From the IMG/VR virus record IMGVR_UViG_3300028534_000019, positions 31,091 to 95,090 of that record: DNA of 64,000 bases; one strand, 5' to 3'. The position numbers and the translations under genes were made by a program. Shown here in pieces: positions 3,517 to 52,600 of this stretch. This stretch comes from a virus (lineage: Duplodnaviria > Heunggongvirae > Uroviricota > Caudoviricetes). Below the pieces are notes generated by a model. It did not search any database, was not told where the DNA came from, and saw only the letters and a program-made list of their open reading frames with translations. Position 1 is the first letter of the stretch. Each line of letters opens with the position of its first letter.

Positions 3517-3786
3517 TTATTCTGAAAAAACAAATTTTACAAAGGAATATTGTTTCCATATTTCACTTTTTTGAAGTGTTGTATTAATAAATGCTTCAAG
3601 TCTATCAGGATATTTATAAGAATTTATTCTTTTTATATTATGTTCTGATAGTTCTTTACTTGGTATTATTTTTTTATCCCCTAAAATTGCTAGACTATTT
3701 GATAAAATATAGTTTGCTTCTTCATTAGAATTTCTTTCAAGTAAAGTTTTATATATGTTATTGATGTTTTCATTAGAAAAAATCAT
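3517..3786 (-). CDS. Hypothetical protein (lone minus-strand gene)
   Basis: 89-codon ORF that does not overlap its neighbours. An AGGAA-type RBS precedes the ATG on the minus strand. Confidence 0.5.
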   Translation of the reverse strand: MIFSNENINNIYKTLLERNSNEEANYILSNSLAILGDKKIIPSKELSEHNIKRINSYKYPDRLEAFINTTLQKSEIWKQYSFVKFVFSE

Positions 3787-3826
3787 ATTACATTCCTTAT
3801 TTTAAAAATATTTATAAAGGTTATTT

Positions 3827-4873
3827 ATGGCTATTATAGAACCATTAGAACAAAAATACTTCTTACTAGAAACCTCATCTAAAGACATAGGATACATTAA
3901 AAGTGATGATATATCTAAATCTTGTGATATATGTAATGAGGGTTCATCTTATGGTAGAAAACACCGACTTCATTTATACACTAAACCTACATATGATACA
4001 CCATCAATAGCGTGTTTTAATTGTGGTTATAAAGGTAATATGTATAGTTATCTTAGAGATTACCATCCTACTTTATTTGACCAATATAAAAAAGAAAAAA
4101 TGGGTAGTACCTTTAAAGAGTTAAAATTATCAAAAAATAAAAATAAAAACTCTAATAATGAAACAACAGAAGATATAAATTTAGATAATATTTTTAGTTC
4201 ACACAAAACAAAACACACACCAATATTAGGCGATTTACCAAAAAGTTTTAAGCCTTTATTAGAATTTGAAGAACCTATAAAATACTTAAAGAATAGAAAA
4301 ATAGAAAACTATGATAGATGGTATTTTTCACCAAAAGATAATAATATTGTATTTAATGGTGCTGAGGTAAGATTAAGTGAATATATTATTATACCATTCT
4401 ATAAAGAAGATAAAATATATGGTTTTCAAGCATTATCATACAAACAAAAAAGATTTTTTGTATTTTTATTAAAAGGTAATGATAGTTGGAAAGTTGAAAA
4501 TTGGTTTAATATAGATAGAGAGAAAAATATATATGTTTTTGAATCTGTTTATGATAGACTTTCATCAGGTTTAGATAATACTATTTCCCAAATGGGTGCT
4601 AGTTTATCAGTTGAAAGAATAGAAGAATTAAATAAAAATAAGCTAGTTTTTTGTTTGGATAATCAAAATATTGATGAAGCATCACAAAGAGAGTCTTTAA
4701 AATATGCTGAGAAAGGTTATAATGTTTTTATTTGGCCGACTAAGATACCAAAAAAATTTAAAGATACAAATGATTTACTAAAGGGTGGTGTACCAAAAGA
4801 AAAGATTAAAGAGATTATTGAAAATAATACCTTTAGTGGTACAGAAGCAATTTTGAGATTAAAAATGATATAA
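3827..4873 (+). CDS. 61: DNA primase (T4 gp61-like; zinc ribbon plus TOPRIM)
   Basis: CDICNEGSSYGRKHRLHLY...CFNCGYKGNMYSYLRDYHPTLFDQY parallels the T4 gp61 zinc-ribbon region as I recall it. The C-terminal part has acidic TOPRIM-like stretches (VFESVYD, CLDNQNIDEA). Confidence 0.8.
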   Translation: MAIIEPLEQKYFLLETSSKDIGYIKSDDISKSCDICNEGSSYGRKHRLHLYTKPTYDTPSIACFNCGYKGNMYSYLRDYHPTLFDQYKKEKMGSTFKELKLSKNKNKNSNNETTEDINLDNIFSSHKTKHTPILGDLPKSFKPLLEFEEPIKYLKNRKIENYDRWYFSPKDNNIVFNGAEVRLSEYIIIPFYKEDKIYGFQALSYKQKRFFVFLLKGNDSWKVENWFNIDREKNIYVFESVYDRLSSGLDNTISQMGASLSVERIEELNKNKLVFCLDNQNIDEASQRESLKYAEKGYNVFIWPTKIPKKFKDTNDLLKGGVPKEKIKEIIENNTFSGTEAILRLKMI

Positions 4874-4883
4874 AGGAATAATA

Positions 4884-5633
4884 ATGTATATACCAAGAAG
4901 AGAATTTGATGATGAACCAAAAATAATTATTTTTAGTGGTGCTGGATTGGATGCCCCATCAGGATTAAAAACTTTTAGGGGTTCTGATGGTTTATGGGAT
5001 AGCCACAAAATACAAGATATTTGTACTGAAAGTACTTGGAAACAAAATTTTGAAGAAGTTCATAATTTTTATAATGGTTTAAGAAATAAATTAGAAAAAG
5101 CACAACCAAATAAAGCACATTTAAAAATAAAAGAATTATATGAAAAGTACCCTGATAGTGTTCTAAATATTACAATGAATATATCAGACTTTTTTGAAAG
5201 GTTAGAAGTTCCAGTTCTTCATATTCACGGAGAACTTAAAAAAATGGAATGTTATGCTTGTGGTACTAAATGGGATATTGGGTATAAGCAGTGGGATATT
5301 GAAAAAGATAGGTGTCCTAAATGCAATAGTAGAAAAGGTGTGAAACCATCTATTGTATTTTTTGGTGGTCAAGCACCTATGTATAGCTACTTGTGGCGTG
5401 CTTTTGAGCATACTATGAATAAAGATACTATTGTGATTGTTATTGGTACTCAGGGTAATGTAGTGAATGTAGAAGAGAATTTAATAGGTACTCCTTGTAA
5501 GAAAATTCTTTGTAATATGGAAGCATCAGCAGATATTAATGTAAAAAAATGTGGTTTTGATAAGGTGTACTATGAAAGTATAGAAACAGCAATAGACAAA
5601 ATTATGGATGATATTGAAGAATGGAAAAAATAA
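4884..5633 (+). CDS. Sir2-family NAD-dependent deacylase (CobB-like sirtuin)
   Basis: FSGAGLDAPSGLKTFRG (GAGxS...FR), VLHIHG (catalytic His), Zn site CYAC...CPKC, and PSIVFFGG. Confidence 0.8.
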   Translation: MYIPRREFDDEPKIIIFSGAGLDAPSGLKTFRGSDGLWDSHKIQDICTESTWKQNFEEVHNFYNGLRNKLEKAQPNKAHLKIKELYEKYPDSVLNITMNISDFFERLEVPVLHIHGELKKMECYACGTKWDIGYKQWDIEKDRCPKCNSRKGVKPSIVFFGGQAPMYSYLWRAFEHTMNKDTIVIVIGTQGNVVNVEENLIGTPCKKILCNMEASADINVKKCGFDKVYYESIETAIDKIMDDIEEWKK

Positions 5634-6088
5634 AAATATTCACAAGTTACTATTCTAATATTAACAAAATCAGAGAGAATTATCCTGATTTTGTTTTAAT
5701 TTCAATTAGTGGTGGTTTGGAAAATAATATTATAACTTTAATAGATGATTGGGATAAAAGGTTAGCACCTAAAAAAGATTTCTTCTTAGAGTATAAAAAT
5801 TCAAAAGAAGGTTTACCACGAGAGATTAAATATGTAAAAGAATTTAATGATAAAGTTCTATATAAAGATAAAATAAAAATAATTATAAACTCTTGGTTAG
5901 AAAAATATCCAAACAAAACTATTGTAATGCTTTGTTATGAACATCCTAAAGATTTTTGTCATAGACAAATAGTAGCTAAAGAAATTGAAACTGTTTTTAA
6001 TGTTGATGTAAAAGAATTATTTTTTGAAAATTATGAAAGAATAGATTATAAAATGTTTCCTAAAGGCTTAGATGAAGATGAATGGTAA
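5621..6088 (+). CDS. DUF488-like protein
   Basis: VMLCYEHPKDFCHRQIVAKEI resembles the DUF488 C(x)E...CHR signature. Overlaps the Sir2 gene by 13 nt. Confidence 0.5.
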   Translation: MEKIKIFTSYYSNINKIRENYPDFVLISISGGLENNIITLIDDWDKRLAPKKDFFLEYKNSKEGLPREIKYVKEFNDKVLYKDKIKIIINSWLEKYPNKTIVMLCYEHPKDFCHRQIVAKEIETVFNVDVKELFFENYERIDYKMFPKGLDEDEW

Positions 6089-6708: not shown

Positions 6709-6954
6709 TCACAAATTAATTTCAAAAAAGTTTCTTACTATGTAGTTTCAATTATGGTATTATTTTCTTTAATAGCAATATTATCAAAACCATCACAAAT
6801 TGAGATAGATGTAAAATCAGGTACTAAAACTCTAACTTGTGAATTTGCTGATGGATGGAGAGAAATAGAACCTGAAAAAGTTGTTGGGTTTAATGATGAA
6901 AATGGATATTGGACTTTTACAAATGGTTATGCTAAAAATTGTGAGGTTAGATAG
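6706..6954 (+). CDS. Small membrane-anchored protein
   Basis: N-terminal hydrophobic helix YYVVSIMVLFSLIAILS. Confidence 0.6.
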   Translation: MSQINFKKVSYYVVSIMVLFSLIAILSKPSQIEIDVKSGTKTLTCEFADGWREIEPEKVVGFNDENGYWTFTNGYAKNCEVR

Positions 6955-7157
6955 TGTTTGTTGATAAAATTTTAGAAAATGGTGTAGAGTGTGTTTTTAT
7001 TACACACTCCAACAAAATAAGAAAGGCATATAGATATAAAAATATTATTTGGAAAATATATGCTAGTGGTGGTTATTCTGAAGTTTTTGAAAGTGAAATT
7101 CAATTCTCAGGAACAAGAGAAGAAGCAAAACAGAAATATCCTGAATTATTTTTTTAA
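6954..7157 (+). CDS. Hypothetical protein with C-terminal YPELFF motif
   Basis: GTG start overlaps the previous stop. Ends ...EEAKQKYPELFF*. Confidence 0.55.
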   Translation: MFVDKILENGVECVFITHSNKIRKAYRYKNIIWKIYASGGYSEVFESEIQFSGTREEAKQKYPELFF

Positions 7158-8795: not shown

Positions 8796-9316
8796 TGGTT
8801 TTAAATTTTTATGGCGGGCCGGGTATTGGTAAAAGTACAAAAGCATCAGAGTTATTTTTTAGATGTAAACAACAAAACTTACAGGTTGAATTAATACACG
8901 AGTTTGCTAAAGATATGGTTTATTCTCAATCTATGGAAATATTGAAAGACCAATATTATGTAGGTGCTAATCAACATCATAGGGTGTGGAGAGTTCATAA
9001 CTATTACTTACAACAAGGTTTTAAAGAGGATGAATTTCTTATAATAACTGATAGTCCTATTTTGTTGGGTGCGGCTTATACTGATGATGATAAATTAAGA
9101 GATTTTATTTTTGAAACTTCAGAAAGATATAATAATATTAATATTATGCTAACAAGAAAATTTAATTACCAAGAAGAGGGAAGAAACCAAGATTTAAAAG
9201 GTGCTATTGAGATTGATAAAAAAGTTTTAGATTTATTAAATAAAACTTCTTATATAGAAACAAATGATACAGATAAAATTTTATCTCTAATTAAGGAAAA
9301 AATGAGTACAATATAA
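8795..9316 (+). CDS. P-loop NTPase (kinase/ATPase-like)
   Basis: Walker A motif FYGGPGIGKST at the N-terminus, and IITDSP as a possible Walker B. Confidence 0.6.
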   Translation: MVLNFYGGPGIGKSTKASELFFRCKQQNLQVELIHEFAKDMVYSQSMEILKDQYYVGANQHHRVWRVHNYYLQQGFKEDEFLIITDSPILLGAAYTDDDKLRDFIFETSERYNNINIMLTRKFNYQEEGRNQDLKGAIEIDKKVLDLLNKTSYIETNDTDKILSLIKEKMSTI

Positions 9317-18639: not shown

Positions 18640-20490
18640 ATGGCAGTTATTGGTATAGATTTAGGAACGACAAATAGTGCTGTTTCAGTTTATGAAGTAG
18701 GGGAATTTAAAATTATTCCTAATGCTGAGGGTAAAAATACAACACCTAGTATTGTAGCATTTACAGATAAAGGGGATGTATTAGTAGGGGAATCAGCAAA
18801 AAGACAAGCAGTCACAAACCCTGAAAAAACTATTGAAGCAATTAAAAGAATTATGGGTATGCAATTTAATGAACCTAGATGTAAAGAGGCTCAAGAAAAA
18901 GTACAATATAAAATTGTAGATAAAAATGGTTTGGCCGCTGTTGATGTTGATGGTAAGATTTATACACCACAAGAAATTTCAGCTAAAATCCTTACAAAAC
19001 TAAAAGATGATGCAGAAGCATTTATTGGTAAAGAAGTTACAGATGCTGTAATTACAGTTCCAGCATACTTTAATGATGCTCAGAGAAAGGCGACACAAGA
19101 GGCAGGCGTTATTGCAGGGCTTAATGTACTAAGAATTATTAATGAACCTACTTCGGCCGCTCTTGCTTATGGTTTGGACAAAAAAGGTGAGGAAAATATT
19201 CTTGTTTATGATTTTGGTGGTGGTACTTTTGATGTATCTGTATTAGAAATTGGAGATGGTACTTTTGAAGTTCTTTCAACTGATGGTAATGCTTTCTTAG
19301 GTGGTAAAGACTTTGACCAAATTTTAGTTAATTATATTGCTGAATATTTTAAAGAGAAACAGGGTGTTGATTTAAGAAATGATAAAATGGCACTTCAAAG
19401 ATTATATGATGCTTCAGAAAATGCTAAAAAAGAGTTATCAAGTGTTGTAGAAACTGAAATTAACTTACCATTTATTACTATGACAGAAGCCGGCCCGCAG
19501 CATCTTGTTTTAAAAATTTCAAGAGGTAAATTTGAGGGGTTAGTACAAAATCTTGTAGATGAAACTATTGAACATATTACAACAGCATTACAAGACGCTG
19601 GTTTAAGTGTAGATGATATTAGTGAATTGATTATGGTTGGTGGCTCAACAAGAATACCTTTAGTACAAGAGGCAGTTTCAAAGTATTTTAAAGGTAAAAC
19701 TCTTAATAAATCTGTTAATCCTGATGAAGTTGTAGCCGCTGGTGCTTCAATTCAAGGTGGTGTATTAACAGGAGATGTAAAAGATGTTCTTCTTCTTGAT
19801 GTTACACCATTATCACTTGGTATTGAAACTATGGGTGGTATTGCTACTAAAATCATCCCAAAAGGTACAACTATTCCTGTTAAAAAATCAGAAATCTTTA
19901 GTACAGCAGTTGATAATCAACCAGCAGTTAGTATTGTAGTAGTACAAGGTGAAGCAAAATTAGCAGAAGATAATAAATCTTTAGGACAATTTAATCTTGA
20001 GGGTATAACACCAGCTAAAAAAGGTGTACCACAAATTGAAGTTAATTTTGATGTTGATTCTAATGGTGTTTTGAGTGTATCAGCTATTGATAAAGGAACA
20101 GGTAAAGAACAGAAAATAACAATTACAGGTTCGACAGGTTTAAGTGAAGAAGAAATTAGAAAGATGATTGATGATGCTGAAAAACAAAATCAAGAAAAGG
20201 CTGAAAAAATTAAAGCAATTGAAGCAAAAAATGAATTGGATGCTACTCTTTCAAGAATTAAAAACTTTAATGATGAAGAAAAAAATGAAGTGCTATCAGC
20301 TAAAATTTCTGATGTTGAAGAATATGTAAAAGAAGATAGAACAGCAGAAGAAATTAGAAAAATTAGAGATGAACTTGAAGAAGTTTATTTAAAAGCATTT
20401 GAAGAGAAATCAAAAAGAAATGAAGGTGCTGAGGTAAAAGAAAGCACTGAAAATAATGATGATGTTATTGATGCTGAAATTGAAGAATAA
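18640..20490 (+). CDS. dnaK: Hsp70 chaperone DnaK (canonical bacterial type)
   Basis: [69 protein letters not shown], and an acidic tail [10 protein letters not shown]. Confidence 0.95.
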
Positions 20491-20501: not shown

Positions 20502-21305
20502 TTGAAAAAATTATATAAAATTCTTGAAATTGAAGAAACTTCTACAACAGTAGAAATAAAAAAAGCATATAGAAAATTAGCTAAAAAATACCACCCTGAT
20601 GTTTGTAAAGAAGAGGGTGGTGAAGATAAGTTTAAAGAAATTAATAGAGCATATGAAGTTCTAAGCAATCCACAAGAAAAACAAAAGTATGATAGATTTG
20701 GTGATGAAATGTATGAAAAAATGGGGTCAGGTGGTGGAAGACCTAATCCAAATGCTGATGAGTTTGCAGAAGCAATGGCATCATTTTTCAACCAAAAGGG
20801 AAATCCCCGACAAGGTAATCCTTTTGGTATGGGTGGTAATCCTTTTATTCATACAACAATTCAAGCATATATTTCGATAGAAGATTTATTTAAAGGTACT
20901 TCTATACAATTACAAGATGGTACTAAAGTAAAAATACCACCTAGAACAATACCGGGTAGTAGGGTAAGAGTTAAAGGCAAAGGTATGTCAGATGGTAAAA
21001 ATACAGGAGATTTATTTATTATCATAACACCAAAAAATAATGATAAAGAATTTGTTGAGAATGATACTATTATAAAGATTATCAAAATTGATTTAGTTAG
21101 TATGATTTTTGGAAATGAAATAAAATATAATCATTATGGTAAAGATTTAATTGTTACTGTTCCAAAAAATACAAAGCCCGGTGACTTTGTACAAATTCCC
21201 AATCAGGGCTTAGGTACTCAGGGTTCATTAATTTTACATTTAGATTTAGAATTACCAAAAGCAGAAGATTTAGATGAAGAAAAAGTAAAAGAATTATTTA
21301 ATTAA
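20502..21305 (+). CDS. J-domain co-chaperone (DnaJ/CbpA-like, no zinc-finger domain)
   Basis: TTG start after AAGAGG. J domain is YKILEIEETSTTVEIKKAYRKLAKKYHPDV with HPD, followed by a G/F-rich linker and a DnaJ C-terminal beta domain. No CxxCxGxG repeats. Confidence 0.85.
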   Translation: MKKLYKILEIEETSTTVEIKKAYRKLAKKYHPDVCKEEGGEDKFKEINRAYEVLSNPQEKQKYDRFGDEMYEKMGSGGGRPNPNADEFAEAMASFFNQKGNPRQGNPFGMGGNPFIHTTIQAYISIEDLFKGTSIQLQDGTKVKIPPRTIPGSRVRVKGKGMSDGKNTGDLFIIITPKNNDKEFVENDTIIKIIKIDLVSMIFGNEIKYNHYGKDLIVTVPKNTKPGDFVQIPNQGLGTQGSLILHLDLELPKAEDLDEEKVKELFN

Positions 21306-24447: not shown

Positions 24448-25548
24448 ATGTTAGTTCAAAATAAAAAAGTTCCAAAAGAAACATTAGAGTTATTGGACTC
24501 TAAAATAGAAGAATTTGAAAAAAATACAAATTCAACTGTTTTATATATTACAATTACAGGTTCTGTTCTTTATGGTACTGATAATGAAAATAGTGATTTA
24601 GATTTTAAAGGTATTTTTATGCCTAATCTAAAAGAAGTGCTTATTGGTAATACACCTAGTGCTTTTGTTTTTAATTCAAATACAAAAGATAAAAACTCTT
24701 CTGATGATATTGATTTAACATTACACCCTGTAAATGACTTCTTTAATCATCTTAGAAAATCTGAAACAGGTGCTGTTGATTTACTTTTTAGTATGTTTAG
24801 AGAAGATACTATTGTTTTTGATGATGGTATTTTCACGAACTTTATGAAGAAAAATTATCAAAAGTTTAGAAATTCTAATATGAAAAGTTTTATCGGTTAT
24901 GCTGTTGGTCAAACTAAAAAATTTGGGATTAAAGGTGCTAGATATGAAGAGTTAGATGTTTTTTATAAAGATTGTGTTAATTATTTTAATCTTGCTCCAA
25001 AAGAAAATAAATTAGGTGAATATTGGGATTTTCTTGAACTAAAAGCCCAAGGTAAAAAATATATTAAGTTTACAAAAGCAGAAGGTGCTAGAAGAAATGA
25101 TGGTAGTAGTAATATCATTGATTATATTTCTGTTCTTGGTAAACTATATCATAAAGATGTAACAGTAGGTTATTTTTTAGAAAGAGTTTCTAAATTTTAT
25201 AATCAATTTGGTAATAGAACTAAAACAGTAGCTAAAACTGAATCAAAAACAGATTGGAAAGCAATGAGCCACGCCCTTAGAGTAGCTATGGAAGTTAAAG
25301 AGTTACTTCAATTTGGTTTTATTAAATTTCCATTGACTTATGCTGATGAGATTAAAGAAGTTAAATTTGGTAACAGAGAAGAACAAGAAACATTAGATAA
25401 AATTAGAGATGTATTGGGTGAAGTTGATACAATATTAGAAAATATTGATAAAGATAACTTTCCTTGTGAAATGAGTGAAGAATTACTTAAAAAATTAAAA
25501 TGGGAAGTAATTCTTCTATATAAAGAGTTTTTAGATTTAGGTTTTTAA
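24448..25548 (+). CDS. Nucleotidyltransferase (RlaP/PF10127-like, Pol-beta superfamily)
   Basis: ITITGSVLYGTDNENSDLDFKGIF gives the GS...G...D-x-D NTase signature of the RNA-ligase-associated family. Confidence 0.65.
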   Translation: MLVQNKKVPKETLELLDSKIEEFEKNTNSTVLYITITGSVLYGTDNENSDLDFKGIFMPNLKEVLIGNTPSAFVFNSNTKDKNSSDDIDLTLHPVNDFFNHLRKSETGAVDLLFSMFREDTIVFDDGIFTNFMKKNYQKFRNSNMKSFIGYAVGQTKKFGIKGARYEELDVFYKDCVNYFNLAPKENKLGEYWDFLELKAQGKKYIKFTKAEGARRNDGSSNIIDYISVLGKLYHKDVTVGYFLERVSKFYNQFGNRTKTVAKTESKTDWKAMSHALRVAMEVKELLQFGFIKFPLTYADEIKEVKFGNREEQETLDKIRDVLGEVDTILENIDKDNFPCEMSEELLKKLKWEVILLYKEFLDLGF

Positions 25549-25549
25549 A

Positions 25550-26602
25550 ATGGATTTTGATTTTGATGAAATTGTTGCTACAAGAACTTATGTTGATTGT
25601 TATTGTAATGATAATATAAGTTCAGATGATATTAAAGGTATATTAAATCCTAATTTTATTAATAAAACATTAAATGAAATAGATAATTTTTTATATGGTG
25701 GTTTTAATTATTTTAGTAAAAGAGTTCCATTCACTTTAGCTGGTGGTTCTCTTCTTAGTTATTGTTCTTATTATATAGCTACAAAAAATGATTATGGTAA
25801 TCCAAAAAGTTATTTAGATTGGTTGGAATATTCAGGTAATTCTGATATTGATTTATTTTTTGAATGTGAGGAAGATTATATAAAAATGCTTGAAGCAGTA
25901 CAAAAAAATGGTTTTAGTAATTTATCACCTAAACCAAATGCTAAAAGTTTTTATAAAAAAAGAGGAAAAAATAAAAATACAATTTCAATAGATTTAGTAC
26001 ATAAAGATTATTCAGCACCACAAAAACTTATAGATAGATTTGATTTGAATAAGAGTAAAATTGCTATAAGTTCTTATGGCAATCTTTATATAGGTAATGA
26101 TTTTGATAATTATCTTTGTTTAAATCCATTAAATATAAATTATAATACTATATCAAGATTTAAAAAATATTCTATAACAAAACATATACAACCTTCATAT
26201 AAAACTTTACAAGAACTTGTACATATTTTCATTGATAAACAAGATGAAGTATATGAAAGTTTTTATAATGATGAAAAAAGAGATATACCTATGTATGGTG
26301 GGCTTGAAAATCTGATTACAATTATTGTAGATTGTAAAAAGTTATATAACATAGATTTAAAACTTAGTCGTGATGAGGTATTTAACTTATATTTAATATT
26401 GGAGAAACATTTTTCTGAAAAAGATAGATTAATTTCTTTTTTTACAAAAATAATTAATGAAGATAGTATTGATTATATACCTAAAATATATGAATTATTA
26501 TTACAACGACAAGATAGATTTTATGGAAAACAATTTGAAGATAATATGGATGAATCTATTAGAGATAAAGTTTTAGAAACATACCCTGAAATAATGTTTT
26601 AA
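25550..26602 (+). CDS. Hypothetical protein (possible second NTase-fold protein) with C-terminal YPEIMF motif
   Basis: FTLAGGSLLSY...GNSDIDLFFE is weakly NTase-like, with longer than typical spacing. Ends ...KVLETYPEIMF*. Confidence 0.35.
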   Translation: MDFDFDEIVATRTYVDCYCNDNISSDDIKGILNPNFINKTLNEIDNFLYGGFNYFSKRVPFTLAGGSLLSYCSYYIATKNDYGNPKSYLDWLEYSGNSDIDLFFECEEDYIKMLEAVQKNGFSNLSPKPNAKSFYKKRGKNKNTISIDLVHKDYSAPQKLIDRFDLNKSKIAISSYGNLYIGNDFDNYLCLNPLNINYNTISRFKKYSITKHIQPSYKTLQELVHIFIDKQDEVYESFYNDEKRDIPMYGGLENLITIIVDCKKLYNIDLKLSRDEVFNLYLILEKHFSEKDRLISFFTKIINEDSIDYIPKIYELLLQRQDRFYGKQFEDNMDESIRDKVLETYPEIMF

Positions 26603-26612
26603 CACATAAAAA

Positions 26613-26634
26613 TTAAGTAATATTACTATATAAT
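26613..26634 (+). promoter_or_regulatory. Promoter candidate (TTAAGT-N10-TATAAT)
   Basis: AAAATTAAGTAATATTACTATATAAT, 31 nt upstream of the ATG at 26665. Confidence 0.55.
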
Positions 26635-26664
26635 ATGACTTATTAAATATAATAAAGGAAAAAA

Positions 26665-27576
26665 ATGGAAGAACAAATAGCGATTGATTTAGGCTATTCA
26701 ACATCAAAAGTTGCTTATGCTGATAAAATAGCAAAATTCCCAACTGCTGTTTCTTTTGCTACTGATGTAGGTACATCATATGGTGAAGGGAATATTTATG
26801 ACTTTGAGGGAGATAAGTATTATGTGGGTAGTGAAGCCGCTGATGCTGAGGCTTTTACAACTATGGATTTTAAATTTTTATATAAATTTGCTCCTCTTCT
26901 TATCTATCATATTTTAAGTAAATTTGATAAAGCAGAACTTGAAAAACCTATTGTTGTAAAAACAGGATTGGCAATTGTTGATTGGCATAAAAAAGATGAT
27001 TTTATTGAAAGAATTTCAAAAATTGAAGTGAATGGGCAAACTGTTGAAACAACACCCATTCTTATTCCTCAAGGTGCTGGATGTGCTGTTGATTGGGTTT
27101 CATCAGATAATGATGGAGAATGGCCGGACAATCTTACAGTAGTTGATATTGGTTATAATACTATTAACCTTATATCATTTTTAGAGGGTAAACCAATTAG
27201 AAAAAATATGAAAAGTTACCCAGGACACGGTGTTTCTAGTATAATTAAACCTTTTACTAGTTATCTTGAAAATACTTTTGGTACAACATTTTCAGAACAA
27301 GAAGCAATTAAATTTTTTGTTAAAGGTACTTTTAAATATAATGGTGAAGACCAACCTAAAGTATCAGAAAAAATTACAGAATTAAAATCACAATTTGTTA
27401 AAAAAATGTTTCAATCTGTTTTAGTTTCTGATAAAAAACTTCTTGCTATGTCAGATGTAGTGCTTATTGCTGGTGGTGGTGCTTATTTACTTCAAGATAT
27501 TCCATTCCCGCCAAATGTTGAGTTTGTTGATTCTCCTTATGAGTTCAGTAATACTCGTGGTTATTTAATTTCATAA
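26665..27576 (+). CDS. Actin-like ATPase (ParM/Alp family)
   Basis: Actin-fold phosphate and adenosine motifs in order: IAIDLGYSTSKVAY, VVDIGYNTINL, VLIAGGGAYLL, and a C-terminal NTRGYLI (compare ParM ...VNGMYLIG). Confidence 0.7.
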   Translation: MEEQIAIDLGYSTSKVAYADKIAKFPTAVSFATDVGTSYGEGNIYDFEGDKYYVGSEAADAEAFTTMDFKFLYKFAPLLIYHILSKFDKAELEKPIVVKTGLAIVDWHKKDDFIERISKIEVNGQTVETTPILIPQGAGCAVDWVSSDNDGEWPDNLTVVDIGYNTINLISFLEGKPIRKNMKSYPGHGVSSIIKPFTSYLENTFGTTFSEQEAIKFFVKGTFKYNGEDQPKVSEKITELKSQFVKKMFQSVLVSDKKLLAMSDVVLIAGGGAYLLQDIPFPPNVEFVDSPYEFSNTRGYLIS

Positions 27577-27589
27577 AAAAGGATAAAAA

Positions 27590-27931
27590 TTGTTAAAATT
27601 ATGGTATAGAATTAAGTGTTTTTTTGGACACTGTTTAGAACTTGATATTATTAAAAGTAAGGAAGAAATTAGAAAAAGAGATTATGATGTTTCTAAAGCA
27701 CCTTATAAAGTTGAAGGTGTGGCTGAGGAATTTCCACAAGAATTTAAAGATATTCTTGAAAAGAAAGAAGATAAAGAAAATGAGTCTGAAAAAACAGAAA
27801 AACTTAAAAGGGCTTGGTTCAATAATGGAGTTGAACAAAGATTAGTTCAAATTCAACCTATTGATGAAAGTTTAAGTTTACCTGATGGATGGGTAAAAGG
27901 TAAATTAAAAAAAGGTATGAATAATGAGTAA
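27590..27931 (+). CDS. Hypothetical protein (TTG start)
   Basis: 113-codon ORF with AAAGGA upstream. K/E-rich. Confidence 0.45.
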   Translation: MLKLWYRIKCFFGHCLELDIIKSKEEIRKRDYDVSKAPYKVEGVAEEFPQEFKDILEKKEDKENESEKTEKLKRAWFNNGVEQRLVQIQPIDESLSLPDGWVKGKLKKGMNNE

Positions 27932-28136
27932 AAATAGATATGGTGTCAGAGACGCTTATAAAAATTTAGCAAACATCACAAAAACAATTAATACTCTTAG
28001 TGGTGAAGCCCTTGAAGAGGCAGAAAGAAAAATTTATCTTTATAGAGATTTTATTGATTATTCAAGAGATTTATACAATAATGGTTTGATAAATCAGAAA
28101 GAATTAAAAGGTTTAGGTAAGGTAGATAATGGATAA
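27924..28136 (+). CDS. Hypothetical protein
   Basis: 70-codon ORF overlapping the upstream gene by 8 nt. Confidence 0.5.
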   Translation: MSKNRYGVRDAYKNLANITKTINTLSGEALEEAERKIYLYRDFIDYSRDLYNNGLINQKELKGLGKVDNG

Positions 28137-28428
28137 TGTAAAACCAACAAGTGTATCTATTAATTTAGATGAACACTCAGTAAAAACAATTAAAAAAGTA
28201 AATAGCATACATAGAGATTCTTTAATCAATATTGGTATTGCTATGGTGGCAAAAACACCTTATTATAAAACATTATTAGGTGTAGAACAAGAAGATTTAG
28301 ATGAAGTAGCATCATTAGATATGTTAGATGAAGAAAATGAAACTACAACATCAAAAAAATCTAAAAAGAAAGAAGAAACTAAAACAGAAGTAAAAGCAAA
28401 ACCTACATCTTCTTGGGATAGTTTCTAA
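28129..28428 (+). CDS. Possible ribbon-helix-helix DNA-binding protein (ParR-like adaptor candidate)
   Basis: The N-terminus TSVSINLDEHSVKTIKKVNSIHRDSLINIGIAMV fits a beta-strand/helix/helix pattern. The tail is acidic then basic. Confidence 0.3.
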   Translation: MDNVKPTSVSINLDEHSVKTIKKVNSIHRDSLINIGIAMVAKTPYYKTLLGVEQEDLDEVASLDMLDEENETTTSKKSKKKEETKTEVKAKPTSSWDSF

Positions 28429-28442
28429 TAAAAGGAACAATT

Positions 28443-28889
28443 ATGATTTTAGATAAAATCACAAAAGAACAATTATTAGCAAGAAAGAATAGAGATACCT
28501 TTAAAACAGGTATCTTAACTACATTAATGTCAGAAGTATCTATTATAGGTAAGAATAAAGGTAATAGAAAAACAACTGATGAAGAAGCAATTGCTGTTAT
28601 AAAGAAATTTATTTCAAATGCTGAAAATAACATTGAATCTCTTCAAGGTTCTCATAATTGGGAAAATTGTACTGAAAGTATTCAAGAATTTCAAGATGAA
28701 ATAGAATTACTTCAAGGTTTTTTACCAAAACAAATGACCGAAGATGAGTTAAAAGTATCTATTGAAGTTATGGTTTCAAAAGGTGCTAACAATATTGGTG
28801 CTATTATGGGTACTCTTAAAAAAGAATATGGTGGATTATATGATGGCAAGATGGCTAGTAAACTAGCTAAAGAAGTTTTATCAAAATAA
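28443..28889 (+). CDS. GatB/YqeY-domain protein
   Basis: LLARKNRDTFKTGILTTLMSEV, TDEEAIAVIKKFISNAENNIE, FLPKQMTEDELK, IGAIMGTLKKEYGGLYDGKMASKLAKEVL. Confidence 0.65.
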   Translation: MILDKITKEQLLARKNRDTFKTGILTTLMSEVSIIGKNKGNRKTTDEEAIAVIKKFISNAENNIESLQGSHNWENCTESIQEFQDEIELLQGFLPKQMTEDELKVSIEVMVSKGANNIGAIMGTLKKEYGGLYDGKMASKLAKEVLSK

Positions 28890-30909: not shown

Positions 30910-31217
30910 TGTCAAAGCAATGGCTTAGTGAATTAATAGAACAGCCATATGAATGGTGTATTGAAACTGTTACAAAAGAGCCTGAATTACTAAAAAATAT
31001 AAAAGTACAAACACAAGAACTTTGTGAAATAGCATTTTATGAAGATTATAAAACAGCAAAATATATACATCAAGAATTTAGATTTAATGAGAGAATTTTA
31101 GCTATTGCTCGACAGCATAGTTTATTAAATAAAAGCATACCACAAGATATGCTTGAAAAAATAAATGAATATCCATATAATTACTTTGAAAAGAAATATC
31201 CTGAAATCTTTTTCTAA
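30909..31217 (+). CDS. Hypothetical protein with tandem C-terminal motif (EYPYNYF then KYPEIFF)
   Basis: Ends ...KINEYPYNYFEKKYPEIFF*. Confidence 0.55.
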   Translation: MSKQWLSELIEQPYEWCIETVTKEPELLKNIKVQTQELCEIAFYEDYKTAKYIHQEFRFNERILAIARQHSLLNKSIPQDMLEKINEYPYNYFEKKYPEIFF

Positions 31218-46289: not shown

Positions 46290-46814
46290 TTACATTTTAA
46301 TCCAGTGAGTAAATGCAAAATCAACAGTAAACTCAGTTACCATATCATTACTTTCATCAGCCATATCAATAGAACTGATATTAGTCGGCCAAAGGTTTCT
46401 AAATTGATAAGTAAGTTTTACACTATTATCTCTTGTATCTAATTGTTGAATTTGTGCTGTTTCAGTCATATAAGAAGCATTAGTAGTAACTTTTCTTTTA
46501 TGATTTTCCATATCATCAATAAATACCAACCAATCATCAAATAATTTTCTTAATTCGTGGTCTTGTGTGTTGTAAAATGTTAAAGACCAAGTATTTTCAT
46601 AAGCCGCATCACCTGCAATTATAAGTTTTCTACCTTGTGTCCAAACCTCAATTTGCCCAATAGATTTAGCTGGTATCGGCCCGCCCTTACAAAGAGTATC
46701 TATCTTTTTATCATCTTTTGGTCCGACAGGAGCCGCCAACATAACTCTATATTTATTTGCTCTTGCACCTAAACCAAGAGTACTTTTTAATTCTTGTACT
46801 TTACTAGAAGCCAT
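46290..46814 (-). CDS. 19: Tail tube protein (T4 gp19-like), paralogue 1
   Basis: GARANKYRV, FDDWLVF and NLWPTNISSIDMADESNDMVTEFTVDFAFTHW parallel T4 gp19 ...GLWPTNVGELQLDWDSNNEIQTFEVTLALDYWE. Confidence 0.85.
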   Translation of the reverse strand: MASSKVQELKSTLGLGARANKYRVMLAAPVGPKDDKKIDTLCKGGPIPAKSIGQIEVWTQGRKLIIAGDAAYENTWSLTFYNTQDHELRKLFDDWLVFIDDMENHKRKVTTNASYMTETAQIQQLDTRDNSVKLTYQFRNLWPTNISSIDMADESNDMVTEFTVDFAFTHWIKM

Positions 46815-46886: not shown

Positions 46887-47399
46887 TCAATCCCAATGTG
46901 AATAATTAAATGTAACAGTAAACTCTAACAACCCTTCTGTATCATCACTATAAGTAGATTCAGATAATGCTTTAGGATATAAATCATATATTGTATATGT
47001 AGCCATTGGTGAGTTATCTTTTGTGCTTAATTGTTGTAAAACAGCATCAGTCATATAACTTGGTGCTGATGAAGCACTTCTATTATTTGTATTAAAATCA
47101 TCTATAAAATTCATCCAAGCTAAAAATGCTTTTCTTAATGTATGCTGTTCTGTATCAACAAATGTTAAATCCCAAGTTCCTGTAAAAAGTGTTTCACCAG
47201 CGATAGTTAATTTTTTACCTTGTACATATACTTCTACATCAGCAAATTCTTTACCAGGAATATTAGCACCTTTAACTAATGTATTAACTATATTATTACC
47301 CGGCCCGCCACCTTTTGAATTAAGAATTAGTTTATATCTATTTGACCTAGCACCTATACCAAGTGTATTTTTTAGATTTTGAATTGTACTATTTGCCAT
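46887..47399 (-). CDS. 19: Tail tube protein (gp19-like), paralogue 2
   Basis: Clearly alignable to paralogue 1 (MANSTIQNLKNTLGIGARSNRYKL..., ...DLYPKALSESTYSDDTEGLLEFTVTFNYSHWD). Confidence 0.85.
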   Translation of the reverse strand: MANSTIQNLKNTLGIGARSNRYKLILNSKGGGPGNNIVNTLVKGANIPGKEFADVEVYVQGKKLTIAGETLFTGTWDLTFVDTEQHTLRKAFLAWMNFIDDFNTNNRSASSAPSYMTDAVLQQLSTKDNSPMATYTIYDLYPKALSESTYSDDTEGLLEFTVTFNYSHWD

Positions 47400-47964: not shown

Positions 47965-48654
47965 ATGGCTTTAGTATATAAAGAAGAATATAAAAATATA
48001 GCTAAAATAGGTGGTAAAGAAATTCATTTTAAACCGTGGAATACAAAAAATGAAAAAGAATTTTTAATTGCTGTTGAATCTGATGAAGATATTACAGATT
48101 CAATGCTATATGAATTATTAGTTAAACCTTGTATAAAAGAACAAGATATTGTACTTGATGAATACGAACAAAAATTACTTATGATTGAAATGAGGAAAAA
48201 ATCTATTGGTAGTACTTTCCCATTGAGTTACAAATGTTCTAATTGTAAAAATCTTAATGAGATTGAAGTAGAATTAGATGATATTATTAAATATAATGAA
48301 CCAAAATATGATGAGGTTACCGTAGAAGATATAACTATATCTTTTGGAGTTCCAAGAACTGAAAAATTAATCAAAAGACTTGATGAAGTTGATACAAAAG
48401 TAGAAAAAACTTTTTATAATTTTTTAATACATATAAACTATATTATTATTGATGGTGTTAAAGAAGATACATTTAGTTTTGAGGAGTTAAAAGATTATAT
48501 TGAAAGTTTACCAACATCTATTTTTGATGAATTTTATGAAAAATATAGTGCTATGAGTCCTAATTTAAGGTTTGAGTTAGACCAATATTGTATGTTTTGT
48601 AATGAGAAAAATCAGATTAATCTTGAAGGAATCCCAAATTTTTTATGGGCATAA
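47965..48654 (+). CDS. 26: Baseplate hub assembly protein (T4 gp26-like) with zinc ribbon, paralogue 1
   Basis: HFKPWNTKNEKEFL...LLMIEMRKKSIGS...YKCSNCKN...CMFCNEKN, ending IPNFLWA. This resembles the T4_baseplate (gp26) pattern from memory. Confidence 0.5.
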   Translation: MALVYKEEYKNIAKIGGKEIHFKPWNTKNEKEFLIAVESDEDITDSMLYELLVKPCIKEQDIVLDEYEQKLLMIEMRKKSIGSTFPLSYKCSNCKNLNEIEVELDDIIKYNEPKYDEVTVEDITISFGVPRTEKLIKRLDEVDTKVEKTFYNFLIHINYIIIDGVKEDTFSFEELKDYIESLPTSIFDEFYEKYSAMSPNLRFELDQYCMFCNEKNQINLEGIPNFLWA

Positions 48655-48844: not shown

Positions 48845-48916
48845 TATTTAATTTAAAGAATAAAGAACCATTATGTCATTAAAGACTCAATGATAAATAT
48901 AAACAAAAGGAAAATT

Positions 48917-49618
48917 ATGGCTTTACAATATAAGCAATCGTATAATAATATCTCTAAAATAGGAGATAAAGAAATTCATTTTAGACCTTGGAGTGCTAAA
49001 GATGAAAGACTTTATTTGAAGTTAATTGAAAAAACTGAAAATATAACAGAAGAAGATTTTTATAACACTTTAATAAAACCTTGTATAGAAGAAAAAGATT
49101 TAGTTTTAAGTCAAGCAGAACAAAAGAAACTATTACTAGATATTAGAATTAAATCAATTTCTGAATTTATTGAAGATGATATTGTATGTGAAGAATGTGA
49201 AGAAATCACTAAAATCAAAGTTAAAATAGAAGACTGTTTAACTTATATACCAAATACATTTAAACCAATTAAAATAGATGATATAGAGATTGAATTTGAT
49301 AAACCAAAAACAATGAAAGATTATTTTAATGTAACTGAGGGTGAAAGTGTCGTAGATTATATCTATGATATGTTTTTGCTACATATAAGTAAAATAAAAA
49401 TGGTTAGTGAAGATGGTGAAAAAGTTTATGATGATATTTCTATTCAAGATAAAGAAGATTTTATAAATTCATTACCTAGTAAGATGTTTGATGAATTTTT
49501 TGAAAAATTTCAAGAAATGCTAGATGAAACAAAAATAACCTATAAGTTTACTTGTCCTAAATGTAAACACAAACAAGAAACAGACTACAATTTTATACCT
49601 AACCTTCTTTGGGTATAA
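48917..49618 (+). CDS. 26: gp26-like hub assembly protein, paralogue 2
   Basis: MALQYKQSYNNISKIGDKEIHFRPWSAKDERLYL... is alignable to 47965-48654. Cys pairs CEECEE / CPKCKH, ending IPNLLWV. The ATG at 48917 (RBS AAAGGA) is preferred to 48890. Confidence 0.5.
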   Translation: MALQYKQSYNNISKIGDKEIHFRPWSAKDERLYLKLIEKTENITEEDFYNTLIKPCIEEKDLVLSQAEQKKLLLDIRIKSISEFIEDDIVCEECEEITKIKVKIEDCLTYIPNTFKPIKIDDIEIEFDKPKTMKDYFNVTEGESVVDYIYDMFLLHISKIKMVSEDGEKVYDDISIQDKEDFINSLPSKMFDEFFEKFQEMLDETKITYKFTCPKCKHKQETDYNFIPNLLWV

Positions 49619-49692: not shown

Positions 49693-52600
49693 ATGAGTGC
49701 TAACAAAAGAACTAATAAAAGAAAAACTTTTAAAAAACCTACATTAATAACTTTACCAAAAATAAAAGGTAGTGATTATAGAAATAAAGATAATTATGAA
49801 GAACCTAATGGTTTTAAAGAAAAAAAATCTAAACCATCATCTTTATTTGCTAAAATGGCTCAAGATTTAGCTAAGGTTAAAAAAGAGAATGAAGAATTAA
49901 ATAATAAACTTGAAAAAATTTATGAAGTTCAAAAAAACTCTAATGCTCAGATAATCAAAAACCAACAACAAAGTATAGATATACAGCACGACCAAATGGA
50001 ACAACAAAGAGAGGCTGAATATAAAAAAGAACATTCTTATGCTAAAAAAGTAAAAGAAAAAATAGTTTATATTAAAGAAAAAACTAAAGATTCTTTATCA
50101 AATGCTGGTGGAAAAATCAAGAATGGTTTTAATAAAGTAAAACAGAAAACATCAGGTTTTTTTGATTTTATAAAGAAAGCAGCGGGAATAGCATTATTTT
50201 TAAAACTTTTTTGGCCGGTGATTAAAAAGAAAGTGATACCTTATGTTAAAGATACACTAATACCTCAAATTAAAGATTTTTTAAATAATAAAGTAATACC
50301 ATTTTTTAAAGATACTGTAATACCCGGCTTAGAGAAATTTTTCAAAGATACACTTTGGCCGATGATAAAAAACAATTTTGGTGATATTTTAAAAGGGTTA
50401 GGTATAACAGCATTTTTGTTAAATCCTGTTAAATTTATAACAACAGCAATAAAATTGGCTTTTAAAACTACTTTTTTTGGAATTAAACAAATAGTAAAAT
50501 TATTACCTAAACTAGCAGGTTTTTTAAAATCACCAGCAAAATATTTAGCAACAAAAGGGTTAGATTTAGCTAAACAAGGTGCTACTAAGGTTTCTGATTT
50601 AGCTAAACAAGGTGCTACTAAGGTTTCTGATTTAGCTAAACAAGGTGCTACTAAGGTTTCTGATTTAGCTAGAGATGGAGTTGATGCTGTTTCTGATTTT
50701 ACAAAAAATGATAGTATAAGTGATATGGCTGAAAATGGTTATGATAAATTAAAAGACTCTAAAGGAAGTGGTGGTTTATTAGAAAAAATTAATAAAAAAA
50801 TTGATTCTATGAAAGAAAAAATAACAAAAATTTCAGGGTCTTTGATAGATAAAGGAATTGGTTTAGCTAAAAAATTACCATCAAGTTTTGGTGCCGCACT
50901 GAAAATGTTAAAACCACTAGCAAAACTTATTCCATTTTTAGGAACAGCATTAATGGTGTGGGATGTTATAGATTTATTTTTCCCTAATTTAACAAGTAAA
51001 CTCACAGAATTTTTTAGTTGGAAGAATATTAAAGAAATGGCTTCAAGTATATGGGAAAAAGTTAAAGAAGTATTTGGTAGTGTTTCTAAATGGATAAGTG
51101 ATAAATTTAGTGGTATAATTTCAAGTGTAAGAAAAATGGTAGGTAAATTATTTTTAATGAGTCCTATGACTGCATTGTTACCTGATTCTATTAAGAAAAA
51201 AGTATATAATTTTATTGTAGGAGATGATAAAGAAGCTAAAAAAGAAGAAAAATCTTCAGCTATGTTTAAAAAAGGTTATGCTAATGATGATTGGGGTGAT
51301 AATAGTATAAATGAACAAAAGATTAAAAAAGATTTAAAAACAGGTAAAATTAATATTAAAGATTTAGAAGCATTGTTACAATATGGGAATTTAGATGAAG
51401 ATGAACAAGATAAATTAAAGAAAATAATTTCTTCTAATACTAAAACTAAAAAAACTAAAAAAACTTTAGGTAATGTTTCATCTATTAGTAATACTACTGA
51501 TGTTAAAAAACCTCTAACAAAAGAACAAAAACAAGATAATTATATTAAATCTATGGATGCCCAAATTGGAGCATTTACAAAAACAAGAGATAAAATTAAA
51601 ACAGCACTTGATAATAAAGATTTAAGTCCTAAGAAAAGAAAAGGTTTAGAGAAAGCATTATCTTATTATGATACACTTATCAAGAAGAAACAAGAAAAGA
51701 AACAAAGTTTAGTAAAACATAAAAAACATAAAAAACCTACAAGAACATCAGAATCATCATATATGATGGCTGATGGGAAAGGTGGGAAAGTTCCAATAAC
51801 TAAAGAGCAACACGACAGAATGGATGCCATTCAAAATAAAATTTCTGTTGCTTTTGATGGTGGAAACAGTGAAGAAATAGATAAATTACTTAAAGAACAA
51901 GAAGATTTAAGAGCAACAATAATTAAAGAAGGATTTAAACCTTCACAAAGTATAAGTATTTCTAATACTTCTAGTAGTTCTAGTACAACAAATAATTCTT
52001 TTGGTAATGTTAGTAATGTTAGTAATGTAGGTAATACTTTTTTATCAGCAAAACCTAATACTGCTCAAAGTGTAGCAAATCCAAGTGAGTCTGAAACACC
52101 AAAAACAGATGGTTTTTTTACTTCTCAAATGAAACCTAGTTTTGATACAAAACCAAAAGATGTAAGTACAAGTGGTTTTAATCAATCACAAAGTAATGAT
52201 TTAGATGATAAAGAAAGAAAACAATTAAAAATGGAAAAAATACCTGCTAAAAAAATATTCAAATTAACAGGTAGTGCTTCAAGTGGTGGTTTTGAAAAAA
52301 TGAATAAATCATTACAACATAATGTTAAATTATTTGGTATGGAATATGCTGAAAAAACAGGAGAAAAACTAACTATTAATTCAGCATATAGAAGTGTTAA
52401 ATTACAAAAAAAATTATTTGAAAATAAGAAAAAAGAAGTAAGAAAAAAACACCCTGAATGGTCAGATAGTCAAGTTCTTAGGGAAACAAGAAGATGGGTA
52501 GCACCTCCAGGGAGAAGCGCACACAATTCAGGTTTAGCAATTGATATAGGTTATCAAAATAGAAAATCTCCATCAATGGATAAAGCAGATAGATTAGGTT

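Follow-up and report, generated by a model that had tools for sequence, protein, structure and literature searches.

The closest described counterparts of the locus analysed here are type II plasmid partition systems, such as those of R1, pSK41 and pCBH and of the Campylobacterota/Aquificota plasmids pCIG1485E and pHRV44. In these systems a ParM/Alp-class motor gene is followed by the gene of a ~90-100 amino acid (aa) adaptor, which consists of an N-terminal strand-helix-helix, a charged flexible linker and a C-terminal tip. The same motor class, gene order and adaptor architecture were found in a 64-kb stretch of a tailed virus (positions 31,091 to 95,090 of IMG/VR virus record IMGVR_UViG_3300028534_000019, hereafter the window), cut from a contig at least 101 kb long. 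The motor is an actin-like protein (ALP) encoded at 26665-27576 and the candidate adaptor is a 99 aa protein, s3, encoded at 28129-28428, both on the plus strand. I lean towards the reading that the two form a captured ParMR-like two-gene cassette whose work in lytic infection is to move phage DNA or to position it, and which does not serve the upkeep of a plasmid-prophage. ALP is 28-35% identical to Campylobacterota/Aquificota plasmid ParMs, and the adaptor gives a weak profile match to the plasmid partners. Unlike the plasmid systems, the cassette resides in a lytic-type T4-superfamily phage, the window cassette has no parC-like array beside it, motor and adaptor genes are split by unrelated inserts in phages, and s3 has no sequence match to solved ParR proteins.

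Phages are known to carry cytoskeletal systems of their own. In the CGP3 prophage of Corynebacterium glutamicum, AlpC and AlpA tie phage DNA to actin-like filaments and are needed for the phage to replicate efficiently (PMC4446434, PMC5539076); the operon is ordered alpA-alpC, and its upstream promoter region contains 24 alpS repeats that are bound by AlpA (PMC4446434). A phage actin with an adaptor, acting in the replication or positioning of phage DNA and not in plasmid inheritance, may be the best functional model for the cassette. However, CGP3 belongs to the temperate phages, resides integrated in an actinobacterial host and has its adaptor gene first, whereas the ALP gene precedes the adaptor gene here, and no repeats were found 5' of ALP or s3 in the window. 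Jumbo phages and phage c-st have tubulin systems, PhuZ and TubZ (PMC4244570, PMC7950403). These too are phage-encoded dynamic polymers, for which positioning of phage DNA inside the infected cell has been proposed, but they have a tubulin and not an actin fold, which makes the likeness one of analogy only. PhuZ works together with a phage nucleus; genes of that kind were not seen in the window, where no search aimed at them was made.

Several phage ALPs of the same Pfam and PHROG family (PHROG 691) are annotated in databases, among them YerA41 gp104, Carin-5 00218, Campylobacter CP220 gp066, Vibrio Va1_190, those of the Rhizobium RHph phages and Bacillus phage G gp506, all from large lytic phages. 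The ALPs of YerA41, GN1 and Carin-5 come with a partner gene (YerA41_106, Carin5_00216), unlike those of CP220, Va1, RHph and 150E35-1, which are ~24% identical to the window protein and have no detectable partner nearby. Database-annotated ParM-like phage genes, one actin-adaptor system in a temperate prophage (AlpAC) and the well understood plasmid systems were already known, and no experimental work on ParM-like genes of large lytic phages was found in the literature searched. What appears to be new is a strictly co-conserved, unnamed adaptor family in a lytic-type myovirus clade, its architectural link to plasmid ParM partners and the loss of the adjacent centromere.

A ParM/Alp-type ATPase and its probable partner

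The open reading frame (ORF) at 26665-27576 starts with ATG and encodes 303 aa. It had been described, from the DNA letters alone, as an actin-fold ATPase with ParM-like motifs, a description with which the ORF, its three diagnostic peptides, the Pfam matches and the invariant residues all agree. The protein passes the curated thresholds of both ParM/Alp families, ALP_N (47.5 bits with a cut-off of 26.3; E = 2.8e-12) and MreB-like_C (34.9 bits with a cut-off of 27.8; E = 2.7e-8), and its PHROG match is phrog_691, 'partition protein' (3.5e-25). The peptides DLGYSTSK, DIGYNTINL and IAGGGAYL are the phosphate-1, phosphate-2 and adenosine motifs of the actin fold. Residues D8, G10, K15, Q136, D161, G163, N165, T166 and G270-G272 are invariant in family alignments of 37-39 sequences, and the nucleotide motifs are intact (37 sequences): D8-x-G10-Y11...K15 (phosphate 1), P135-Q136-G137 (connect 1), D161-x-G163-x-N165-T166 (phosphate 2) and G270-G-G272 (adenosine). 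At least 242 ALP homologues were found in metagenomes.

An AlphaFold2 model built with 37 homologues (mean predicted local distance difference test score, pLDDT, 88.5; predicted template-modelling score 0.83) was compared with the PDB using Foldseek. Ranks 1-25 were all ParM/Alp-type filament formers (E = 4.7e-17 to 3.7e-12; template-modelling scores mostly 0.65-0.76), led by Ta0583 (4.7e-17) and including pCBH ParM, CorM, pSK41 ParM, R1 ParM, Bacillus thuringiensis ParM, Alp12, AlfA and Alp7A. The R1 ParM matches include an entry in complex with a ParR peptide. MreB, MamK, FtsA and eukaryotic actin ranked lower, and neither an Hsp70 nor a sugar kinase, the two non-polymerising folds that the original prediction had itself considered, occurred in the top 50. 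ALP is thus very probably a ParM/Alp-type protein, and it is predicted to polymerise into filaments.

The homologues of YerA41, GN1 and Carin-5 are 48-50% identical to the window protein, and those of YerA41 and GN1 are annotated as 'DnaK-like chaperone'. This label is a misnomer, because the window holds a DnaJ and two genuine Hsp70s (1.7e-230 and 4e-141 for Pfam HSP70) while ALP has no HSP70 match; its 303 aa leave no substrate-binding domain, and the YerA41 annotation itself cites the conserved domain cd10227 ParM_like.

Three small ORFs follow ALP, as originally reported: s1 (27590-27931), s2 (27924-28136) and s3 (28129-28428), all on the plus strand. All three had been put forward as candidate partners, and their conservation was assessed in 20 related loci that encode ALP homologues, namely YerA41, Carin-5 and 18 IMG/VR contigs (related loci and contigs are cited below by L numbers where needed). 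Using tblastn with the window proteins, an s3 homologue was detected 3' of ALP in 12 loci, while no homologue of s1 or s2 was detected in any of the 20. With a hidden Markov model of the s3 family, a syntenic ORF downstream of ALP was recovered in 20/20 loci; 13 of these matches were strong (E <= 7e-19) and seven were weak but in the same position. An exhaustive profile search brought the family, clustered at 50%, to 122 representatives, of which 57 had E <= 1e-10, and since it also recovered the weak, longer syntenic forms, these were counted as members. A profile was required for this, as searching with the single s3 sequence gave three proteins only.

The association also holds in reverse. 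Scanning viral contigs with the s3 profile recovered only three contigs that were already known, and the reverse direction was then pursued by looking up other contigs that encode s3-family proteins: in 4/4 cases an ALP_N/MreB-like_C gene lies directly upstream. A small adaptor gene is therefore linked to the motor gene in both directions, and s3 is likely the functional partner of ALP. It belongs to no known family in Pfam, PHROG or NCBIfam.

Neither of the other two small ORFs was retained as a partner, as neither is conserved in related loci; both are lineage-specific inserts outside the conserved module. s1 (113 aa, TTG start) matches phrog_10820 'HNH endonuclease' at 3e-7, over profile positions 140-209 of 214 only, which is the C-terminal part. 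The source contig has s2, a 70 aa orphan without a Pfam or PHROG match, among its called genes. In the window, ALP and s3 are 552 bp apart because these two ORFs have been inserted, and the same slot is occupied by a dUTPase gene in YerA41 and Carin-5, a homing endonuclease gene in L005, a DNA methyltransferase gene in L004 and a dNMP kinase gene in L011 and L013 (gap coordinates: window 27590-28136; L001 5928-6725; L002 5943-6698; L004 6903-7499; L005 6803-7903; L011 6903-7469; L013 6950-7618). The gap is thus a hotspot for unrelated inserts, and the pair stays linked regardless. With s3 syntenic everywhere, s1 and s2 nowhere and the slot variable, the conserved module comprises two genes and not four. 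Other genes also occur close to the pair: the four related contigs L035-L038 carry a GHKL-type ATPase gene (Pfam HATPase_c, 368-391 aa) and two more reverse-strand ORFs ~1 kb 3' of the partner, and in L036 and L037 an ORF of 73-76 aa with weak helix-turn-helix matches overlaps the ALP start.

The partner is a three-part protein. Its N-terminal domain (aa 1-50; 28129-28278, plus strand) is a putative cargo- or DNA-binding domain, for which AlphaFold2 gave a confident model (pLDDT 77-93 for residues 1-50) with an extended segment followed by helices at 15-22 and 26-41 and a short helix at 44-49. Residues L13, D14, S17, I20, L21, H28, S31, I33, N34, G36 and L39 are near-invariant in the family alignment. 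The order of strand, short helix and long helix resembles the ribbon-helix-helix fold, which forms only as a dimer, as do the hydrophobic residues that alternate along the first segment and the Ser that N-caps the long helix. The original prediction, that the N-terminus is compatible with this fold, therefore finds support in the element order of the model but no confirmation from fold or profile searches: Pfam (33 s3-family members, 10 long members and six plasmid partners), NCBIfam and PDB profile searches returned noise only. Compatibility of the predicted topology is as far as I take it.

Residues 51-95 are predicted to be disordered, and this linker varies across the family in length and composition, being acidic or Lys-rich. 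Some members have an extra Q/N/P-rich N-terminal extension. The third part, at the extreme C-terminus, is the aromatic/acidic peptide SSWDSF (28408-28425, plus strand), a putative filament-binding tail. Such a tip is kept throughout the family despite the variable linker and ends in an aromatic residue, reading SSWDxF in the window clade and IDLSDLGGF or F-x-S-W elsewhere. The type of tip tracks the ALP clade: [ST][ST]WDxF is the tip in the majority of loci where ALP shares 48% or more identity with that of the window, with the exception of L012, where the ALP is 48.7% identical and the s3-type protein ends in ...LGDFM; F[ST]SW or ...GW is found in the 43-48% clade; and the partners of plasmid ParMs end in ...AW(G), ...GW or ...GF. 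Co-variation of this kind is expected of a peptide that touches ALP, and the tail may contact the filament.

The nearest non-phage relatives of ALP are plasmid proteins annotated as ParM or StbA. Identity is 33-35% to the plasmid ParMs of Campylobacter iguaniorum, C. upsaliensis and Nitrosophilus labii (E down to 5e-46) and 28-32% to those of C. concisus, Thermovibrio and Persephonella. Several of these plasmid hosts are of hydrothermal-vent origin, as is the metagenome that yielded one of the related contigs. On all six plasmids a small ORF follows parM, overlapping its stop in 4/6, and the encoded partners share the s3 architecture: an N-terminal strand-helix-helix, in which the helix N-cap is of the S-K-S-K-A-I type, is followed by a Lys-rich linker and a C-terminal tip (...ETAWG, ...EYGW, ...EVAW, ...FEGF or ...DWWG). 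Aligning the phage s3 family with these partners in hhalign gave a probability of 69.7% (E = 4.2e-5) over 40 columns that coincide exactly with the N-domain, in register. This amounts to moderate evidence that the s3 family and the plasmid ParM-adjacent proteins are homologous. Moreover, ALP has less in common with the ALPs of phages whose terminase is nearest (phiKT1024 type and CP220 type; ~24% identity, and no detectable partner) than with plasmid ParMs. This pattern points to a plasmid as the probable source of the cassette.

Centromere searches and the promoter-like motif

In plasmid systems of this type, parC-type direct repeats adjoin the operon, usually 5' of the motor gene. No iteron-like array was found beside the window cassette in searches for direct, inverted and tandem repeats across 24-31 kb, or in a Tandem Repeats Finder (TRF) analysis of the whole window; this includes the 62-bp region upstream of ALP, where the absence of a convincing iteron had already been pointed out. 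The six plasmid relatives served as a positive control, and repeats were found 5' of parM in 6/6, three of them with helically phased arrays of 8-11 bp. These are a 10-bp period in two clusters (Thermovibrio), an 8-bp period in two clusters (Persephonella) and an 11-bp period (pCIG1485E); the others have 43 bp x 3 (C. upsaliensis), two 44-bp repeats (Nitrosophilus pHRV44) and AT-rich inverted repeats only (C. concisus pICON). In this phage the canonical place for a centromere is thus vacant.

The best iteron-like non-coding array of the window lies 25 kb from the cassette, at 1280-1332 on the plus strand, between a copy of the promoter-like motif described below and the gene for a single-stranded DNA-binding protein (SSB; 1345-2358). 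It consists of 5.3 copies of a 10-bp unit with the consensus AAATTGTTAG (TRF), and its unit shows no enrichment in the rest of the window (24 matches, 25 expected). Taking this array as an s3 binding site would be speculative, and origin iterons or a regulatory element are equally possible.

Among related loci, L008 has arrays on both sides of the ALP gene, with five copies of TAAAATAGTG upstream and seven copies of TTAAACACA between ALP and partner, and L009 has three copies of AAGCTGCGCA upstream of ALP. The L008 arrays were not accepted as a centromere, as several other intergenic gaps of that locus contain 9-11 bp arrays of different sequence: the tandem arrays of L008 are perfect, with a unit that differs from gap to gap (5915-5961, 6903-6963, 3739-3828, 5162-5215 and 9050-9098). 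A junction repeat in L020 was likewise rejected, since it codes for a Q/N-rich extension.

ALP had also been credited with a strong promoter-like sequence of its own. A 28-nucleotide (nt) motif, AAAAATTAAGTAATATTACTATATAATA, does lie directly 5' of the gene (26608-26635, plus strand), with the layout AAAAATTAAGTA, ~10 nt and then TATAAT. It is not a canonical sigma-70 promoter, as TTAAGT and TATAAT (26613-26634) are just 10 nt apart and a sigma-70 scan does not list the site. The motif recurs in plus-strand intergenic gaps at 1135, 13871, 18575, 39373 and 48817, more loosely at the last three; its 22-mer core has three matches where 0.08 are expected, and the same motif type is found 5' of the ALP gene in L003 and L019. 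Judged by this recurrence it is plausibly a phage-specific promoter class. The perfect palindrome AGTAATATTACT within it (26616-26627) was considered as a partner-specific operator and rejected: it forms the spacer of the motif, whose five other copies do not keep the palindrome. The four best copies, at 1135, 13871, 26608 and 39373, are almost equally spaced (12,736, 12,737 and 12,765 bp) and the intervening genes are unrelated; in a post hoc Monte Carlo estimate, the probability of such near-equal spacing for four of six sites is ~5.5e-5.

Cargo and role of the cassette

The host genome of the cassette was described as T4-like, which is acceptable in the broad sense: the large terminase subunit (TerL) and gp5- and gp6-like baseplate proteins show it to be a T4-superfamily myovirus. 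The nearest TerL proteins, at ~40%, are those of phages of the Vibrio phiKT1024 and Campylobacter CP220 types. The window also encodes head closure, tail sheath stabiliser and tape measure proteins, two tail-tube and two baseplate-hub paralogues, and the replication proteins SSB, exonuclease and primase; with these structural and replication genes it does not look like a low-copy replicon in need of inheritance at division. Among the ~50 window ORFs scanned there was no integrase, repressor or ParAB-type protein.

Cultured relatives carry the same pair. Carin-5 is a lytic myovirus (PMC12686479), YerA41 is a myovirus with lytic propagation (PMC7354516), and the DNA of both contains hypermodified thymidine (PMC12686479, PMC7354516, PMC9023294). 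Their hosts, Cobetia marina and Yersinia ruckeri respectively, are both culturable. In both phages the pair lies in a replication and nucleotide-metabolism block, flanked at one end by topoisomerase II and exonuclease genes and at the other by helicase genes; its neighbours in the window are the RlaP, YqeY and ThyX genes. Relatives of the window ALP clade were absent from 185,579 bacterial and archaeal species (one genome per species) in a pattern-based scan, which divergent copies could escape. This absence weighs against common residence on plasmids, which should have shown up there.

On these grounds I propose the following mechanism. ALP would bind and hydrolyse ATP and polymerise into dynamic filaments. 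s3 would dimerise through its N-terminal strand-helix-helix domain and bind phage DNA, while its flexible linker would present the aromatic tip SSWDSF for docking on a filament subunit, in the way in which the C-terminal helix of ParR docks into ParM. Filament growth would then push or position replicating phage genomes during lytic infection, and plasmid-prophage inheritance would not be its purpose. That the cargo is DNA, and that the role lies in lytic replication rather than plasmid maintenance, is on balance the more credible view.

Several points weigh against this proposal. Lysogeny genes could sit beyond the 64-kb window, and the species scan was limited by its patterns. The window cassette lacks adjacent centromere-like repeats; repeats are found upstream of parM in every plasmid relative. 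Finally, no partner was detected next to the distant phage ALPs of CP220, Va1, RHph_Y65 and 150E35-1, and so an ALP can apparently function without one.

The original prediction had offered two roles, segregation of a plasmid-like prophage or pseudolysogenic form, or positioning of DNA in the cell as done by PhuZ, and the second of these fits better. True plasmid partition, with the cassette segregating the phage at host division as a pseudolysogen, as a plasmid-like prophage or in a carrier state, is an unlikely explanation. It draws on the kinship with plasmid ParM/StbA genes that have the same small downstream partner, on the PHROGs name 'partition protein' and on the part of the contig outside the window. 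It is at odds with the lack of an adjacent centromere, which sets the window apart from each plasmid relative, with the lytic cultured carriers, with the lack of an integrase, repressor or ParAB-type gene among the ORFs scanned and with the position of the pair among replication and nucleotide-metabolism genes; a resident plasmid-prophage should also have left homologues among the 185,579 species genomes, where the pattern-based scan found none.

Next in standing, and distinctly unlikely, is the possibility that ALP filaments are real but are linked by the partner to something that is not DNA, for which procapsids, the replisome and a membrane site are candidates, or that the partner only nucleates or caps filaments. 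The partner indeed has no match to a DNA-binding family or fold, an adjacent centromere is absent, and the longer members have disordered Q/N/P-rich N-terminal extensions typical of protein-protein hubs. An acidic tip that ends in an aromatic residue is also reminiscent of C-terminal tails of the SSB type, by which replisome proteins are recruited. However, the element order and residue pattern of the N-domain are those of ribbon-helix-helix DNA binders, and the plasmid ParM-adjacent proteins, with which the domain aligns in register, come from cassettes that carry repeats upstream of parM. The short direct-repeat arrays beside ALP in L008 (TAAAATAGTG, TTAAACACA) and L009 (AAGCTGCGCA) also speak for a DNA cargo.

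More doubtful again is a division of labour in which s3 is a plain ribbon-helix-helix regulator of its neighbours and ALP acts alone, for example by disturbing host MreB or FtsA so that division is blocked or cell shape altered. Repressors are very common among ribbon-helix-helix proteins, ParR autoregulates, distant phage ALPs lack a partner, and the ALP model resembles MreB and FtsA, albeit at lower rank. A pure regulator, however, would have no need of a conserved aromatic peptide at its extreme C-terminus whose type follows the ALP clade, the two genes remain linked despite unrelated insertions between them, and the operator-like palindrome upstream of ALP belongs to the generic promoter motif. 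The last alternative, that ALP is a non-polymerising actin-fold ATPase such as an Hsp70-type chaperone or a sugar or other kinase, has the chaperone label of two homologues on its side and is largely refuted by the missing HSP70 match, the missing substrate-binding domain and structural matches that are ParM/Alp filament formers at the top.

DNA positioning by the cassette could be taken further, although I regard this extension as improbable: lytic myoviruses of the T4 superfamily and with hypermodified DNA, including YerA41 and Carin-5, might run an actin-based DNA-positioning machine that is the actin counterpart of the PhuZ spindle, with an adaptor that would have dropped the dedicated adjacent centromere of its plasmid forebears and would read dispersed sites or phage DNA generically, for instance through modified bases. 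If true, generic or modified-base recognition would let filaments tell phage DNA from host DNA. If the cassette positions phage DNA at all, phage cytoskeletons would extend beyond tubulin and jumbo phages, and the cassette would be a natural case of a partition system re-purposed without a cis site. The culturable phages YerA41 and Carin-5 make the role of the actin motor in lytic infection directly testable. Even if the cassette turned out to be ordinary, the 'DnaK-like chaperone' annotation stands corrected and two of three candidate partners have been shown to be unrelated inserts.

Other features of the window

The window has a base composition of 26% guanine plus cytosine, and nearly all of its genes are on the plus strand. 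Directly upstream of ALP is an ORF of 350 aa (25550-26602, plus strand) that has no Pfam family in the scan; the contig record gives it a weak match to PF26128 (Gad2), a family that takes its name from an anti-phage defence protein. Further cargo comprises Sir2, ThyX, YqeY, an RlaP nucleotidyltransferase, a nucleotidyltransferase of the CCA/poly(A)-polymerase type, an SPFH protein, two Hsp70s, DnaJ and a transfer-messenger RNA (tmRNA).

The tmRNA (39452-39772, plus strand) was predicted by ARAGORN and scores 90.8 bits in Rfam (RF00023; gathering score 47), with the tag peptide ANNTDYTGNTVLSA; the promoter-like motif copy at 39373 lies 79 nt 5' of it. The two Hsp70/DnaK paralogues are full-length (18640-20490 and 39844-41706, plus strand; the HSP70 values given above are in this order), and a DnaJ co-chaperone gene is located at 20502-21305 (plus strand). 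Together with the nucleotidyltransferases of the CCA/poly(A)-polymerase type (38175-39122) and RlaP type (24448-25548) and with YqeY (28443-28889), all on the plus strand, they make up an unusual load of genes related to proteostasis and translation.

Among the structural genes, the tail-tube and baseplate-hub proteins are encoded by tandem paralogue pairs, at 46290-46814 and 46887-47399 (minus strand) and at 47965-48654 and 48890-49618 (plus strand), respectively. The sole reverse-strand block of the window, at 44.8-47.9 kb, carries tail genes. A tape-measure-like ORF at 49693-53952 (plus strand) contains two in-frame tandem repeats, one of 33 bp x 3.3 (50563-50699) and one of 18 bp x 5.9 (52868-52973), both with 100% identity between copies.

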